From contig JAEOTE010000090.1 of NCBI GenBank assembly GCA_016839945.1, forward strand, positions 1 to 64,000: a DNA stretch of 64,000 nucleotides. The letters run 5' to 3'. The stretch is from Candidatus Heimdallarchaeota archaeon. GTDB lineage: Archaea > Asgardarchaeota > Heimdallarchaeia > Heimdallarchaeales > Heimdallarchaeaceae. Below, piece after piece: positions 16,327 to 44,713 of this stretch (within the stretch, counting starts at the first letter, position 1; each line of letters opens with the position of its first letter). Both the position numbers and the translations under genes were made by a program. The notes below the pieces were generated by a model. That model worked only from the letters and a program-made list of their open reading frames with translations. It was not told the DNA's origin and made no database searches.

Positions 16327-17529
16327 ATGACAAAAATCGTAGTAGAAGAAGATCAAGAAATGGAATTGACCAAGGTTGATGGTAATCTTGAGATTTTAGA
16401 TGGAGCAACAGTAATTGTTTCTCCTAATGTTGAATATCTAGCTGTTAGTGGAGATCTGATAAGTAAGGGGGACGTAGTAATTCAAGGTTCAATAGTAGCT
16501 GGTGGGTTGAGACATAAAAACGGATATCTCGAAATCGAGGGTGATGCTAAAGTTAAGGAGATATCTGTTTCAAGTGGAAAAATGCGTAATGGTTCTAAAT
16601 TAATAGTTTATGGTAATTTAGAAGGAATTGAAGCTGAAATCGATGGTAGTTTAGAAGTTGAAAAGGATTTTATCTGCAAAGATGTAGATATTATGGGATC
16701 ATGTAAAATTCATGGTGAAGCAACTGTAGAAGAGTATGAAGTAAGTGGTTCAGCAAAACACGGTAAGGACTTAAAAGCTAAAGAAGTAGAAGTAAATGGT
16801 TCATTAAAAGCATCCCAAAGTGTTTTTGTGGAAGAAGATTTTGAAATTTCTGGTTCTGCGAAAATAAGTGATACTCTAAAAGCAGTTAGTGTTAATGTGG
16901 GTGGATCTTTTGTATGTTCAACTCTAACAGCAACTGAAGTTGATGTTGGAGGTTCAGTAAAAATAACCAGAGGAGAAATTGAGGAAAAAATCGATGTAGG
17001 GGGATCATTTAAATGCGAAGAATCTCTTAGAGTGCCTAAAGCTTCATGTAATGGATCCTGCCGTTTTGGTGATAATTCACAAGTTAATGTACTTAATATT
17101 AATGGAGCAACAAAAGTTGGTTCAGATTTCGTTTTTCAAACAATTAAAGTAAATGGAGCATTCAATTTTGATACAAACGCCAGTGGTGATACCCTAACAA
17201 TTAATGGAGCAACCCAAGGTGAGGGATTATTAAAACTTAATGAAAAATTAAGTATAAATGGTGCATTGCATGTTGATAAGGTTGAAGCAGACGAAGTAGA
17301 CATCGCAGGTTCTTTTGATGGTGAGGAAATTAAAGCCAGATTTATACATGTTTCAAGAAATTCACGTGTTAAAGGGACATTAATTGCAGAAAAAGTAATA
17401 GTTGAAGATGAAGCTCGAGTTGAAAACATAATTGCTGATGATGTTGAACTAGGAGAAAAAGTTAAAGCTTTGAAAGTTCAAGCTAAAAATTTGAATGCTG
17501 ATCCTTCAGCGAAATATCGAACTGAATAA
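16327..17529 (+). CDS. Bactofilin-like / polymer-forming cytoskeletal beta-solenoid protein
   Basis: Many ~17-aa repeats of the type (V/I)xV(S/N/G)GS and INGA; C-terminal SRVKGTLIAEKVIV typical of CcmA/YhbE-like proteins. Confidence 0.7.
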   Translation: MTKIVVEEDQEMELTKVDGNLEILDGATVIVSPNVEYLAVSGDLISKGDVVIQGSIVAGGLRHKNGYLEIEGDAKVKEISVSSGKMRNGSKLIVYGNLEGIEAEIDGSLEVEKDFICKDVDIMGSCKIHGEATVEEYEVSGSAKHGKDLKAKEVEVNGSLKASQSVFVEEDFEISGSAKISDTLKAVSVNVGGSFVCSTLTATEVDVGGSVKITRGEIEEKIDVGGSFKCEESLRVPKASCNGSCRFGDNSQVNVLNINGATKVGSDFVFQTIKVNGAFNFDTNASGDTLTINGATQGEGLLKLNEKLSINGALHVDKVEADEVDIAGSFDGEEIKARFIHVSRNSRVKGTLIAEKVIVEDEARVENIIADDVELGEKVKALKVQAKNLNADPSAKYRTE

Positions 17530-19385: not shown

Positions 19386-19466
19386 AGTCTATTGTTAACT
19401 AGGGATTAATGCCTTATAAGCATTATTAAAAATGGAGGATTTAGAGTTTTGAAATTTATATAAAAT

Positions 19467-19594
19467 GGTTCAACTCTCAACTGCTCTTATGTGTAAATGA
19501 GCTCATTGCTCCAGAGTGGAATCATTTTGATTCATCAAACCAATTTCAATTCATTGCTCACTAGGCCACATCTTAAGAACTGAAAGGAGAACCC
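19467..19594 (-). ncRNA. Box C/D methylation-guide sRNA for pre-tRNA-Trp C34 and C39 (core 19498-19560, in a long terminal stem)
   Basis: Minus strand reads TGAGC-A-[C ATGAATT]-GA-AATTGGTTT-G-[D' ATGA]-ATCAAA-[C' ATGATTC]-CA-CTCTGGAGC-A-[D ATGA]-GCTCA. Both spacers are 12 nt; each guide forms 9 Watson-Crick pairs with the adjacent pre-tRNA; D+5 falls on C34 and D'+5 on C39. Confidence 0.88.
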
Positions 19595-19630
19595 TAATTA
19601 CTGGTTATAAGTTATAAAAATAAAGGTTTG

Positions 19631-19741
19631 TGGTGGGGACTGGGTGATTTGAACACCCGACCAATTGGTTTCTTCGGATTGGTCATTGCCAAAGCAATGT
19701 TCTCTGGAGCCAACCACTCTACCGGACTGAGCCAAGTCCCC
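19631..19741 (-). tRNA. trnW: tRNA-Trp (CCA) with 34-nt intron at 37/38 (intron 19670-19703); CCA end encoded
   Basis: Acceptor GGGGACT/AGTCCCC+A+CCA; D-arm GCTC/GAGT; anticodon stem GTTGG/CCAAT with loop CT-CCA-G|A; T-arm GGGTG-TTCAAAT-CACCC; 77 nt when spliced. Confidence 0.96.
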
Positions 19742-19828
19742 TACCGATGCTCTTGTTTTTCTCCTTATTTCTTCTTTTAAGGTTTTCTTTATCTTTTTTC
19801 TTGTCTCTTTTCTGAAAATTCCCGTTGA

Positions 19829-20935
19829 TTATTCAATGTAGTAATTTCTATCTTCTAATAAAAATCCCCTTAATATCTCCCCATCCTTCTTCTTTGGTGG
19901 AATTCTTTCTATATTATCATCAAAATTCTCATAATTATCCATAGCCATGATTGTAACTGTTTCATTTTCTTTGGATACCAACATATATTCTCTTAAAATG
20001 ATCTCGTCGCTTCTTTTTTTAGCTCGTTTTTCGACTCTCTTTCTATCAATGTTTTTTATAATGTGGTTCTCAAGATTTTCCATTTTTACTTGATTTTCGT
20101 TAACATTCTTTACTAACCACAAGTGATTTTCGTACTCTATTACGTCACTCACTGCAAATTCTGGTAATCTTACCAAATATGTATTAGTGTATACTTCTGT
20201 TCCATCTTTTGAAGTTGTTTTGTGTTCATAAGCTACAGTCAGTTTTCCTGCAGTCAAATTCTTAATTTCTCTAGCTATTGTTTCAGCTAGGAATTTTGTA
20301 CTAACATTTGCAGTTATACCATCATTGTCTACCTCTAGGTCAAGAATATATGCTAATCTTGCGTCTTCATACTGCTTCATCATTTTCTCTATTAGATTTT
20401 CTATTTCTTCTTCTTCTTTTTCTGTTAGTTTCCTGTTTTCTCCCCTAATTTGTAATATTGCTTCAAAATACCCAGATCTATACTTAGAACAATCATCACA
20501 ACCTTGTCTCACCATTTTCAATCTTGTTTTACCTTCCCTTATGAATTCCCCGAATTCTTTGAAAGGTTTGGCTGTTATAGTGGTGATCATGGTAAATTCC
20601 TTTACACCATAATTCATGATTTTGCTTTCTTCTATATCATCTTCAAATTCAGAATTATAAGAAAAATCAACACTTATTTTTTCTAAGATTTTACTCCGTG
20701 AAATTTCTCGAATAATTTCTTCTAGACTTTCCTCTCTTCTCCAAGTATCGATGTGAGCTCTAGAAACAAAAATTGTTCCACATGTAGGACAGATTTCAAT
20801 ATCTAAGGAAGGAGTAATCTTTATTTCTAAAGAATTTTCTCTTTTGAAGCAGTTCTCACACATATTATCTAAGAATGGGCCTTCCTTCTCACCACAAACG
20901 GCACAAAATCTTCCTTTTAGTGAAATTTTAATCAC
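19829..20935 (-). CDS. nmd3: NMD3 family large-subunit maturation protein
   Basis: Four CxxC pairs, GYFEAILQIRG, TYLVRLP, C-terminal eIF5A-like domains. Confidence 0.92.
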   Translation of the reverse strand: MIKISLKGRFCAVCGEKEGPFLDNMCENCFKRENSLEIKITPSLDIEICPTCGTIFVSRAHIDTWRREESLEEIIREISRSKILEKISVDFSYNSEFEDDIEESKIMNYGVKEFTMITTITAKPFKEFGEFIREGKTRLKMVRQGCDDCSKYRSGYFEAILQIRGENRKLTEKEEEEIENLIEKMMKQYEDARLAYILDLEVDNDGITANVSTKFLAETIAREIKNLTAGKLTVAYEHKTTSKDGTEVYTNTYLVRLPEFAVSDVIEYENHLWLVKNVNENQVKMENLENHIIKNIDRKRVEKRAKKRSDEIILREYMLVSKENETVTIMAMDNYENFDDNIERIPPKKKDGEILRGFLLEDRNYYIE

Positions 20936-20971
20936 CTATATAGCTGTTCTTCTTTAAACTCAAAAAAGTTG

Positions 20972-21289
20972 CTATTTTATTAAAATTGCATGACCAACCT
21001 TTTTCTTTTGATCAGAAGGATTTTCAAACCAAAGTACAGCATCTTTATGAATTAATCTGTTTTCAACTAATAATTTTATGATTTTTACACCAATAACATT
21101 TGCAGATGTGCATCTTTGGACTTCATTTAGTAACTCTTTTTCAGTTACTAATTCATTTCCATAGAACCTCTGCGATACTTTGATTTTAACATCTTTGCAA
21201 AATAATTCTAAATCTACAACTTCCTTATCACACGCTGCAACCAATACTTCATTTCGCTGTTTAATGACCTTCATAAAGAAAACAGACAT
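20972..21289 (-). CDS. DUF424 family protein
   Basis: LVAACD.E, V...FYG, T.ANVIG, GHA; usual neighbour of aIF-2beta and NMD3. Confidence 0.88.
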   Translation of the reverse strand: MSVFFMKVIKQRNEVLVAACDKEVVDLELFCKDVKIKVSQRFYGNELVTEKELLNEVQRCTSANVIGVKIIKLLVENRLIHKDAVLWFENPSDQKKKVGHAILIK

Positions 21290-21309
21290 TTTATTTCAAC
21301 TTCATTAGC

Positions 21310-21720
21310 TTATTTTCTTAATGGTTTAACAGCTGTGGATGCACCACAAGCATCACAACGTTTCCATAATATTCTGGATTCAGCAACTAGTTTGGTATCA
21401 GGTTTACTACACTCGTTACATATGACATATTCCTTAACGTATCTTTCCAGTAAACTTTGGAGAGTAACTCTAGCATGTTTTCCAGCGAATACAGCACGAG
21501 CACCTTCCATTGTTACAGATGTTGCTAATTCACCAGCCATAAATTTAAGAAAATGATTTTCTTCTCTATTTATTGTTTCCAAGATTTCTCTTATGTTTAC
21601 AATGAAAGTTTTGTTTCCCTCAACAACTGAACGAATTATGGGTATTTCAAATCTTGATTGTTCAAAGACCTTTTCAGGTAGTTGACTTCTTGCTCGTTCA
21701 AGTAATTCTTTGTATTCCAT
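21310..21720 (-). CDS. eif2b: Translation initiation factor aIF-2 beta
   Basis: YKELLERA, RFEIP, EGNKT, YVICNECSKPDT...CDACGA zinc ribbon. Confidence 0.96.
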   Translation of the reverse strand: MEYKELLERARSQLPEKVFEQSRFEIPIIRSVVEGNKTFIVNIREILETINREENHFLKFMAGELATSVTMEGARAVFAGKHARVTLQSLLERYVKEYVICNECSKPDTKLVAESRILWKRCDACGASTAVKPLRK

Positions 21721-42456: not shown

Positions 42457-44556
42457 TTAAGGTTCTAAAAGCATTCTTAATGTTACAAGAACAGCATCTA
42501 TTTCATTCTTTAATTTTTCAATAGTTTGTTGTCTTTCTCTGAATAACTTTACGTATGATTCTTTAGTCATGCTCTTCTTAACACGATATTCCTGCTGTAA
42601 AGCTCGCAGATTTCTTCTTTCTTCAAAGAGTTTTCTTTCAGAGATTTCAATTTTCTGAACTGAATCCTTGTATCGTCCACCATGTTTCACAAGATTCTCT
42701 TTTGTGACCTTCAAAGATTCTTCTTCAGAGCGTAATCTCTTTTCAAGTTTTGTTCTTAGATCTTTTCCTTCTTTTGCTTTCAGTTTCTTAGCTGCAATCT
42801 TTGCTCTTGTCTCTCTAATTCTCTCTTTAAGCGATAGAACCTCTTCATATTGTTTAACAAACTCTTCAAGTTCATCTACAGGAATGAATTCCTTTTCTTC
42901 TTCCAGTACATATTCCTTGGCAGTTTTTGTTGACCACCTTATTCCTAAATAAATGGCAAAAATTACTCCGACGGATATTACTTGGAAGAAGTAAGTTACC
43001 CACATATTAAAGCCAGAATAATTATAATAAATTACCATTGGAGAGTTATCACTTCCAGAGAATTGTGTAGTTTCAAAATGTAAAATTCTTTTAAACCCCA
43101 AACTGCTAAAAGCGAATTTTACATCATAGCCTGTAAGTGGAATTACTTGATAAGGATCAGCACCTTCGTAAACATATGATTTATAGACTGCACCTTTTGG
43201 TAAGACTATATCTATGTATAGATTATCCACTGTCCAATTTATTATTGAACAAGGTGAGAGTGTTAATTTGTAGTTAATTGATGTTTGTTCCTTAGAAAGA
43301 AATGTTTCCATTGGAACTTTGTAAACTATTGTAAAAGTCATTTGTTCTCCATGGAATAAGGGGTAACGTGGAAATATTACTAAACCCGGATAGTTTGGAA
43401 AAATAGTGTCTCTAAGATTATACGACCCTCTTTCAAAGAATCCTTGTTCGTCAAGCTGTGAATAAAAGTTCAGTTGCCCAAGTTCGTCTGCAAGTGATAA
43501 GACAGATGAGTTTTGGGGAAGAATTATTACAAAAGCGTTCAAACCAAAAAGCTTAACTTGTGTCATAGGAGAATCACTTGGTCTTTCAGGCCCCAAGAAA
43601 AGGATATTTTGTGTTTCAGTAACTTTGATTAAACCAAGTGGTTCAATTTCGACTTTTCTATAAACTTCTGTTGCTTTGAATAATTTTGTATTAGTTGCTT
43701 CTTCTACCGCTTCACCAGTACTGACTGATTGAGTATAAACATTCATTAACAAATCGTCTTCATAGGATTGAGAATAATTAAACGGTCCTCTAGTTATATT
43801 TGTCCATTTTAATACCCCTGCTGCAGCTTGGGATACATAAATTACATCTGCTGTGTTATTATTTGGAGTTACTGTGTATTCTGCATTGTCAATGAAGTTG
43901 TCATTTCCTTGTTTATTTACCTGCGCTTCTCCTTTAACTAGTGGAATATTATTAATTAGAGGATAAAGCAATTCTCTATAATGAAGAAGTTGCTCACCTG
44001 CTAGTATCTCATAAAAATAAGGGGTAGCAAATTCTATATAACTAACAAGATAATAGTGTGCATCTTTTCCAATGCTTGATTTATCAACATTAAATGGAAC
44101 CATATACGTTGTATAATCATCTGACTTATAGTAACTATAAGTACGTGTAGCATTTTTGAGATTGATATCTCGAAAAGTTTCATTTACTACATGAAATCCA
44201 ATAAAGGAGATATTATCTACATTAATATTCGGGAGAGTATAATTGAAGTAAACAAGAGATTCATTGCCAATAACATTCAATTCAACTGAATCAATTAATG
44301 TGACTACGCCATATTGCTCAAAACTGATTGATCTATTAAAATTTGCTGTTGCATTAAACCCATAAGTGTAGTTTGCAATAGCATTAAACTTAACATTGCT
44401 AATTGGAGATATGGGAGTATTATTCATTACACTTGGCGGATTTGAATATAGATCAGAATTCGAATTTGCATTGATTACTCCAAACATAGGTAGAAATGAT
44501 ATACCAATAATAAGAAGTATAATCATAGGTAATATTGTGTTTTTGGTTTTTTGCAT
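42457..44556 (-). CDS. Ribophorin I (OST1)-like oligosaccharyltransferase subunit homolog
   Basis: Signal peptide from ATG 44556; luminal domain rich in N-x-S/T; R.VEI...G.I.V.E, D.LG and PRYPLF.G....F.I.Y..P match ribophorin I; single TM; cytosolic coiled coil. Confidence 0.78.
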   Translation of the reverse strand: MQKTKNTILPMIILLIIGISFLPMFGVINANSNSDLYSNPPSVMNNTPISPISNVKFNAIANYTYGFNATANFNRSISFEQYGVVTLIDSVELNVIGNESLVYFNYTLPNINVDNISFIGFHVVNETFRDINLKNATRTYSYYKSDDYTTYMVPFNVDKSSIGKDAHYYLVSYIEFATPYFYEILAGEQLLHYRELLYPLINNIPLVKGEAQVNKQGNDNFIDNAEYTVTPNNNTADVIYVSQAAAGVLKWTNITRGPFNYSQSYEDDLLMNVYTQSVSTGEAVEEATNTKLFKATEVYRKVEIEPLGLIKVTETQNILFLGPERPSDSPMTQVKLFGLNAFVIILPQNSSVLSLADELGQLNFYSQLDEQGFFERGSYNLRDTIFPNYPGLVIFPRYPLFHGEQMTFTIVYKVPMETFLSKEQTSINYKLTLSPCSIINWTVDNLYIDIVLPKGAVYKSYVYEGADPYQVIPLTGYDVKFAFSSLGFKRILHFETTQFSGSDNSPMVIYYNYSGFNMWVTYFFQVISVGVIFAIYLGIRWSTKTAKEYVLEEEKEFIPVDELEEFVKQYEEVLSLKERIRETRAKIAAKKLKAKEGKDLRTKLEKRLRSEEESLKVTKENLVKHGGRYKDSVQKIEISERKLFEERRNLRALQQEYRVKKSMTKESYVKLFRERQQTIEKLKNEIDAVLVTLRMLLEP

Positions 44557-44713
44557 TAGTAAAACCTCATTTTTTGTAGTCTTGTCCAGAAAGAGGAGGA
44601 ACAATTTTAAATATTTTGGCATAGAAGATTTTTTCAGGTTTTATTTGTTTTTTATTTGCACCTTTTACCATAAGAGTCGGAATGTTTTTGTATTTTTACT
44701 TTCTAAATAGGTT

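Follow-up and report, generated by a model that had tools for sequence, protein, structure and literature searches.

The stretch of DNA analysed here, referred to as the window, comprises 64,000 nucleotides of contig JAEOTE010000090.1 from an assembly of Candidatus Heimdallarchaeota archaeon (GCA_016839945.1), a 3.0-Mb genome that is 88% complete and has a G+C content of 32%. On its minus strand, the window carries a tRNA-Trp(CCA) gene with an encoded CCA end (19741-19631; Rfam tRNA model, 53.7 bits), in which exon 1 (19741-19704) and exon 2 (19669-19631) are separated by a 34-nt intron (19703-19670) that is placed after position 37 and contains no C/D boxes. Downstream on the same strand lies a box C/D small RNA (sRNA) core (19560-19498), whose two guides are complementary to the exon-intron junctions of this tRNA and whose flanks pair into a bulged stem of the kind recognised by archaeal splicing endonucleases; core and flanks are together called the cassette. 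The CCA end is 49 nt away from the core of the flanking stem and 70 nt away from the terminal stem of the C/D RNA, which corrects the distance of 36 nt given in an earlier note on this DNA. Default ARAGORN made no call for the tRNA-Trp gene of the window, and the tRNA-Trp genes of relatives were called as intron-containing by ARAGORN -i.

The sRNA core is closed by a 5-bp terminal stem formed by TGAGC (19560-19556) and GCTCA (19502-19498), all positions being on the minus strand. A single A separates TGAGC from box C (AUGAAUU, 19554-19548), which is followed by a 12-nt spacer holding the D' guide (19547-19536), the D' box (AUGA, 19535-19532), a 6-nt linker, the C' box (AUGAUUC, 19525-19519), a second 12-nt spacer holding the D guide (19518-19507) and the D box (AUGA, 19506-19503). 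The earlier note had placed the boxes, the terminal stem and the 12-nt spacers in the same way, and the sequence bears it out on each. The element thus has the features of the box C/D class, namely a terminal stem, an internal C'/D' pair, 12-nt spacers that are conserved across species and a Watson-Crick pair at the N+5 position. The UGA is found unchanged in each of the four boxes across 21 species, and the genus keeps the same box variants throughout. Where box C and box D usually form U.U and G-C pairs, those formed here are A-U and U-A, and at C'/D' they are U.U and U-A. In K-turn geometry, positions 2-1 of an AUGA D or D' box find pairing partners in positions 5-6 of box C or C' (AU or UU) and, by this established geometry, the K-turn of the variant boxes should still fold. 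Rfam, which the earlier note had proposed to search, holds no family that reaches its gathering threshold over the sRNA (best weak match plasmodium_snoR16, 18.5 bits versus a threshold of 70), and the tRNA of the window is the sole Rfam family above threshold at the locus.

The D guide CTCTGGAGC (19516-19508) and the D' guide AATTGGTTT (19545-19537) match the two exon-intron junctions of tRNA-Trp by exact complementarity, each forming nine Watson-Crick pairs in a duplex that spans a junction. By the N+5 rule, the fifth base upstream of box D selects C34 (19707) and the fifth base upstream of D' selects C39 (19668). Both the complementarity to the splice junctions and the choice of these two bases had been claimed before, and both hold. 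For a chance resemblance, in which an AT-rich intergenic stretch happened to contain UGA motifs and two short complements, it could be said that relaxed box patterns match coding sequence and that single guide-complementary 10-mers, which match 5 and 48 places in this 32% G+C genome, are frequent and uninformative alone. In contrast, the two 9-mer targets, in order and no more than 100 nt apart, are found in the 3.0-Mb genome at tRNA-Trp only, apart from the trivial antisense of the guide RNA itself, where about 0.05 such paired-target places would be expected by chance. This unique dual target, together with the covariation and the one-copy conservation of the element in two families that are described below, refutes the chance explanation, to which we give practically no credence.

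The distribution of the element was followed by BLAST and with two covariance models, R1 including the flanks and R2 covering the C/D core alone. The cassette was found by BLAST in 21 of 24 congeners and by R1 in 20 of 24, as well as in six of six genomes from four other genera of the family. The core, which is conserved in the 21 congeners and scores 80.7 bits with R2 in the window, was matched by R2 once and only once in 27 of the 30 genomes of f1, the family of this archaeon, in 10 of 12 of f3, a second Heimdallarchaeia family, and in one of two of f6, and was not matched in f2, f4, f5 (22 genomes) or f7 (12 genomes); the tRNA-Trp gene itself was not located in f5, f7 and f2 by pattern or BLAST searches. 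No guide was recovered by searches that included R1 and R2 in genomes G017, G003 and G021, which are 72-89% complete, so that absence is not shown for them. An exact-pattern scan of 185,579 species genomes matched 'Candidatus Heimdallarchaeota' metagenome-assembled genomes (MAGs) and two Anstonellaceae (DPANN), in addition to approximately 30 bacterial hits, which are at chance level, about 65 being the estimate for chance. The copies in family f3 and in DPANN have canonical RUGAUGA/CUGA boxes. On this comparative evidence, the element is a real conserved gene.

Two of these loci deserve separate description. R1 detected no paralogue of the Trp cassette in the genome of the window; in congener locus L038 (G012:C128), a degenerate tandem duplicate that retains the flank and box C and has a decayed D' guide lies at ~1543-1573 (R1, 34.5 bits), upstream of an intact cassette at 1597-1725, indicating that the cassette can duplicate locally. 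In Candidatus Anstonellaceae (L117; JBKBMW010000007.1, 333-514, minus strand), an intron-containing tRNA-Trp gene is followed ~30-45 nt on by a dual guide with canonical boxes, of which the D guide fits the first three bases of the intron and the D' guide forms only 6-7 bp.

Guide and target change together across these genomes. The N+5 position falls on C34 and C39, as G-C pairs, in 23 of 23 genome pairs in which both genes were recovered. The D' guide tracks the anticodon stem; for example, the target CCUGU is matched by the guide AUAGG in G045, and C43 by a G at guide position 9 in L190/L091, from a further Heimdall genome. Similarly, the D guide enters the intron by 2-5 nt and changes with the intron bases, the first intron bases and the D guide reading AG/CU in the family, AGUCU/AGACU in G044, UGA/UCA in G015 and AUU/AAU both in four more genomes, the search pattern for which fixed only GGCUCCAGA and not those bases, and in Anstonellaceae L117, found with the exact-pattern scan. 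The D duplex is always longer on the pre-tRNA (9-11 bp) than on the spliced tRNA (7-9 bp). As the D guide forms its duplex over the 5' splice junction and covaries with the first bases of the intron, the substrate of the guide is most likely the unspliced pre-tRNA-Trp. The search for boxes, guides and guide-target covariation in relatives that had been proposed for this locus thus finds all of them, across two families, and a separate dual guide for C34 and C39 of the neighbouring intron-containing tRNA-Trp, as originally described, is confirmed and now seen to be conserved with its target.

The guide had also been described as free-standing, which is correct in that it is separate from the intron but incomplete in that the gene is not bare: in all congeners, the C/D core is bordered on either side by approximately 25 conserved nt, which frame it with a bulge-helix-bulge (BHB) signal. 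On the 5' side, this consists of the outer helix strand CTTTCAGTT (19586-19578), the central helix strand CTTA (19577-19574), a 3-nt bulge AGA (19573-19571) as the predicted 5' cut site of the splicing endonuclease, and the inner helix strand TGTG (19570-19567), all on the minus strand; on the 3' side, it consists of the inner helix strand CACA (19493-19490), the central helix strand TAAG (19489-19486), the bulge AGC (19485-19483) and the outer helix strand AGTTGAGAG (19482-19474). All of these elements are identified by pair counts, the bulges and the outer and central helices also by a strict motif scan, and the outer and central helices and the 3' bulge further by the minimum-free-energy (MFE) fold. 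In the RNA, CUUUCAGUU pairs with AGUUGAGAG in the outer helix, CUUA with UAAG in the central 4-bp helix and UGUG with CACA in the inner helix. With one 3-nt bulge per strand, each located 3' of the 4-bp helix, the arrangement is a canonical 3-4-3 helix-bulge-helix-bulge-helix (hBHBh') motif, as recognised by archaeal splicing endonucleases (PMC7714728, PMC4090602).

The signal is kept by compensation. Over 21 species, 90% of the cells in the alignment of paired positions are paired, compared with 30-51% when the partners are slid; the central helix pairs in 100% of cases, with compensatory changes, the inner helix in 97.6%, with two compensatory pairs, and eight flanking pairs have changed on both sides. 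In the strict 3-4-3 scan, 18 of the genus's 21 species have the motif, as do the two complete genomes of a second genus, g13, and MFE and centroid folds return the same bulges. The predicted excised piece is 88 nt long here (19571-19484) and 83-92 nt across species; a bulge register shifted by one nucleotide fits equally well.

The tRNA gene and the guide are in tandem, 48-51 nt apart, in six species of the genus, while in 15 other congeners 1.1-4.2 kb lie between them. They are in tandem and 0.3-0.4 kb apart in g10 and g11, divergent in g13 and convergent in g12. The physical linkage to the target that had been emphasised for this locus is therefore kept in five genera, but since the order may be tandem, divergent or convergent and protein genes intervene in most congeners, linkage does not amount to co-transcription. 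In two congener loci that were examined, the tRNA-Trp gene and the guide are separated by ordinary genes, partly on the opposite strand (an amine-oxidase-like gene and an S15 peptidase in one, an LTD/Ig protein and phosphofructokinase (PFK) in the other); a mobile-element origin of these inserts was considered and rejected, as the genes are ordinary and no integrase was present in either locus.

These arrangements bear on whether tRNA and guide form a dicistronic precursor from which RNase Z cleavage of the tRNA trailer frees the guide. The short same-strand tandems of the six species, those of g10 and g11 and the spacing of ~30 nt in one Anstonellaceae would suit such a precursor, for which the tRNA-Val/sRNA8 gene of Nanoarchaeum and the tRNA-snoRNA genes of plants offer precedents (PMC3491384). 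It is nevertheless quite improbable, given the kilobase distances with opposite-strand protein genes in the 15 congeners, the divergent and convergent orders in g13 and g12, the run of five T after tRNA-Trp and the conserved AT-rich box that precedes the cassette everywhere. In the window, this box is CTTTATTTTTATAA (19625-19612, minus strand); a similar motif, AAAC-N-TT(T/A)ATTTT, stands ~50 nt upstream of the cassette in all congeners, even where the tRNA is kilobases distant. The box is probably the oligo-T terminator of the tRNA, a BRE/TATA-like promoter of the guide, or both, and its retention whether or not the tRNA is near suggests that the cassette has a promoter of its own.

Downstream of the cassette and on the same minus strand, the list of open reading frames (ORFs) contains a small ORF of 73 aa (19385-19164) that matches no Pfam family. 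It is used here to mark the genomic context and might be a host transcript: beginning ~90 nt from the cassette, it could have the cassette as a BHB intron in its 5' untranslated region (UTR), with the guide as a by-product of mRNA splicing. By eye, an in-frame-looking ATG occurs at a similar distance in two further clades, and a BHB intron in the 5' UTR of Haloferax HVO_1309 is known (PMC7714728). Against this, the downstream genes vary among clades, a T-run and a hairpin lie between cassette and ORF in the window, and the syntenic ORF in congener G015 follows the tRNA with no cassette in between, leaving the 5'-UTR explanation little probability. Between cassette and ORF, at ~19405-19432 on the minus strand, there is a T5 run and then a short palindromic hairpin, ATGCTTATAAGGCAT, which may be a terminator or promoter element; the only Rfam match there is a weak one to CRISPR-DR66 (E = 4).

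Congener G015 carries the guide inside the tRNA-Trp intron. This intron is 85 nt long and comprises a 7-bp stem, AUGAAUA, an 11-nt spacer, AUGA, AUGAUUA, a 12-nt spacer and AUGA; its boxes are the genus-specific variants, its guides place N+5 at C34 and C39, and its D guide fits the first bases of its own intron. By BLAST, the locus is syntenic with the window, having NMD3 upstream, the small ORF directly after tRNA-Trp and no cassette between, and no second copy of the guide was found in the G015 genome by searches that included R1 and R2. The ends of the intron resemble those of the short intron in the window, and the guide module appears to replace the central hairpin of the short intron. 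In a tree of methionyl-tRNA synthetase (MetRS), G015 forms a single lineage in an unresolved knot with three genus clades and outgroup genera, and every other lineage in that knot, outgroup genera included, has the stand-alone guide. Under parsimony on this tree the intronic state is derived, which supports the stand-alone state as ancestral within the family and G015 as having captured the guide into its intron; the shared box variants suggest that the captured module derived from the genus's own cassette. Of the two alternatives in the earlier note, that the guide had been relocated out of the intron or never captured by it, the question is thereby sharpened to one of capture in a single species from an ancestral stand-alone gene.

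The genome encodes the machinery that such a guide would use, including fibrillarin (308.7 bits) with Nop5 adjoining it (223.9 bits), two EndA-domain ORFs of 205 and 185 aa (91.6 and 42.8 bits) and RtcB (546.6 bits). From the anatomy, conservation and covariation of the element, these enzyme genes and the intronic state in G015, we infer a path of transcription, cleavage, circularisation and methylation. Transcription of the cassette would start at an AT-rich promoter of its own and yield a precursor of ~130 nt, the ends of which would fold into the helix-bulge-helix-bulge-helix, and the splicing endonuclease would cut both bulges to release an RNA of ~88 nt. RtcB may circularise this RNA, just as the C/D-bearing tRNA-Trp intron of Haloferax becomes circular, and together with L7Ae, Nop5 and fibrillarin the RNA would specify C34 (D guide) and C39 (D' guide) for 2'-O-methylation. 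The cassette would thus act as an intron without a tRNA. Taken as a whole, it is likely that the element is a functional stand-alone C/D guide gene, producing an EndA-excised RNA of ~88 nt, for C34 and C39 of pre-tRNA-Trp.

Several observations weigh against this interpretation. All four boxes depart from the RUGAUGA/CUGA consensus, the D' guide fits spliced tRNA and pre-tRNA to about the same extent, and the homology between the G015 module and the cassette rests on box variants and synteny, the remaining shared sequence being functionally constrained. Three of the 21 species are one pair short of the strict motif, shuffled sequences fold with energies as good as that of the cassette (z = -0.5), and in the species of the window the 4-bp central helix has a rival in a different, 7-bp register; because of this z-score and the competing register, the support for a splice signal is comparative, not thermodynamic. 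The RNA data, two metatranscriptome runs, gave no sign of a transcript, an RNA end, a circular junction or methylation; their reads are confined to 19631-19752, the tRNA region of a relative, and, with no coverage of the cassette, are uninformative either way. Finally, the strict scan found no motif around the same RNA in g10-g12, family f3 or DPANN, where the copies have plain 6-9-bp terminal stems without bulges, indicating that the framing is lineage-specific and not needed for guide function.

The plain stems of g10-g12 and f3 also favour an alternative with a real guide whose flanking helix would be no more than a long stem for closing or processing the RNA. The RNA ends would then be produced by exonucleolytic trimming to the protein-bound K-turn, the route that has been proposed for the majority of archaeal C/D sRNAs, with no splicing endonuclease involved. 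The unexceptional fold energy agrees with it, as does the usual lack of BHB motifs at C/D termini stated in a review (PMC7994747). However, 18 of 21 and two of two species retain the sizes of the bulges and the 4 bp between them despite compensatory base changes, the bulges are never paired, and a mere stabilising stem has no need of two offset 3-nt bulges, so that trimming of a plain stem is unlikely and excision by the endonuclease remains the preferred reading. Framing as a general rule in this genome was not shown: a loose scan for other framed C/D RNAs gave 428 matches versus 240 in a reversed-genome null, and a dual-guide scan gave 35 loci versus 10 in the null, of which the Trp cassette alone was convincing, the relaxed box patterns also matching coding sequence.

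The intronic guide of G015 indicates that the module can pass between stand-alone and intron locations. More speculatively, the framed cassette might be a portable intron, which EndA and RtcB excise and close and which could thereby move between the stand-alone locus and the intron of its target; such a move would proceed by reverse splicing and reverse transcription or by local DNA rearrangement. We regard this extension as doubtful. If it were true, G015 would show, caught in the act, the origin of intron-encoded guides, that of the euryarchaeal tRNA-Trp intron included, and the model would extend to the intron-hosted snoRNAs of the Asgard-eukaryote lineage.

The guide within the euryarchaeal tRNA-Trp intron was reportedly described by Clouet-d'Orval in 2001 and Singh in 2004, as related in later papers that cite them. 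Haloferax volcanii and Pyrococcus (sR50) have a box C/D RNA inside the pre-tRNA-Trp intron (PMC7994747, PMC4090602), and the Haloferax intron has been found as a circle (PMC7714728). As in that system, the D guide addresses C34 and the D' guide position 39 by pairing that spans the junctions, and the module is bounded by a BHB from which release by EndA is expected. In contrast to it, the module here is separate from the tRNA, is flanked by a splice-signal stem of its own and probably also has a promoter to itself; position 39 is C and not U; the boxes are AUGAAUU/AUGA and not RUGAUGA/CUGA; and the tRNA keeps a box-free 34-nt intron, the intronic layout occurring in congener G015 only.

Stand-alone and tRNA-linked guides also have precedents. 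Pyrobaculum sR26 is a stand-alone C/D sRNA with C34 of tRNA-Trp as its predicted target, on the mature tRNA, as given in the available part of PMC6009581, so that a free-standing guide gene for this wobble base, although present here as the earlier note stated, is not new by itself. For sR26, the same part of that source mentions no position-39 guide, no linkage to the tRNA gene and no splice-signal frame, all of which are present here. Dicistronic tRNA-C/D genes, which according to the available parts of PMC3491384 and PMC7994747 include tRNA-Val/sRNA8 of Nanoarchaeum, a tRNA-Ser of Ignicoccus, a tRNA-Pro of Thermoproteus and examples in plants, resemble the locus in having a C/D guide directly downstream of a tRNA on the same strand. 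In those dicistrons, however, no guide is described in the same parts of these sources as aimed at the preceding tRNA, and release is by RNase Z, whereas here the guide is aimed at that tRNA, the predicted release signal is a BHB and adjacency is not needed, as genes lie between in most congeners.

Known non-tRNA substrates of EndA comprise the rRNA processing stems, the cbf5 mRNA intron, the 5'-UTR intron of HVO_1309 and the permuted SRP RNA of Thermoproteus (PMC7714728, PMC4731332). Like these, the cassette has a helix-bulge-helix-bulge-helix outside a tRNA that frames a functional RNA, but none of them encloses a stand-alone box C/D guide. A 2021 review describes C/D termini as usually lacking BHB motifs and the route to circular C/D RNAs as unclear (PMC7994747), and Trp guides receive no mention in a 2026 preprint on the tRNA introns of Asgard archaea. 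A literature search, with most subscription journals outside its reach, found no report of the arrangement. Stand-alone guides for C34 of tRNA-Trp (sR26) and tRNA-sRNA tandems are therefore already known; what is new here is a stand-alone, splice-signal-framed and target-linked dual guide for pre-tRNA-Trp, together with an intron-capture variant in a sister species.

Further features were noted around the locus. The tRNA-Trp intron has its own splice motif (19670-19703), with a central 4-bp helix, CUCC/GAAG, that contains a C34.A mismatch, and an inner helix interrupted by 7 extra bases, a second ACCAAU among them; this mismatch and interruption make the motif relaxed, which fits the presence of two EndA paralogues in the genome. 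Additional introns occur in the tRNA-Trp genes of congeners, namely a 35-nt insert in the T-loop in L047 (G015:C188, ~1690-1470, minus strand), an insert of ~30 nt after position 43-45 in L045 (G017:C107, 5243-5104, minus strand) and an insert in the D-arm in L037 (G022:C87); G022 also has a second, 5'-truncated tRNA-Trp copy ~3.7 kb off. Upstream of the tRNA in the window, the NMD3-family gene (20935-19829, minus strand; Pfam NMD3, 124.6 bits) is the synteny anchor with congeners and belongs to a single minus-strand row of translation and ribosome-biogenesis genes made up of aIF2-beta, DUF424 and NMD3 (19829-21720), tRNA-Trp and the guide. The window also encodes MetRS, a 400-aa bactofilin-repeat protein (16327-17529, plus strand) and a ribophorin-I homologue (42457-44622, minus strand), which we take to be a eukaryote-signature protein of Asgard archaea.

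The guide in the euryarchaeal tRNA-Trp intron is the textbook example of an intron-encoded RNA that modifies the transcript hosting it, and the origin of that arrangement has been an open question. In one genus of Heimdallarchaeia, which are close archaeal relatives of eukaryotes, both the stand-alone and the intronic state occur at the same syntenic locus, with a polarity that can be read from the tree. As the stand-alone form already bears the splice signal of an intron, it provides a testable model for the capture of guides by introns, would widen the set of non-tRNA substrates of the archaeal splicing endonuclease by a new class and offers a defined route to circular C/D RNAs. In addition, the covariation between guide and intron is comparative evidence for methylation before splicing in these organisms.

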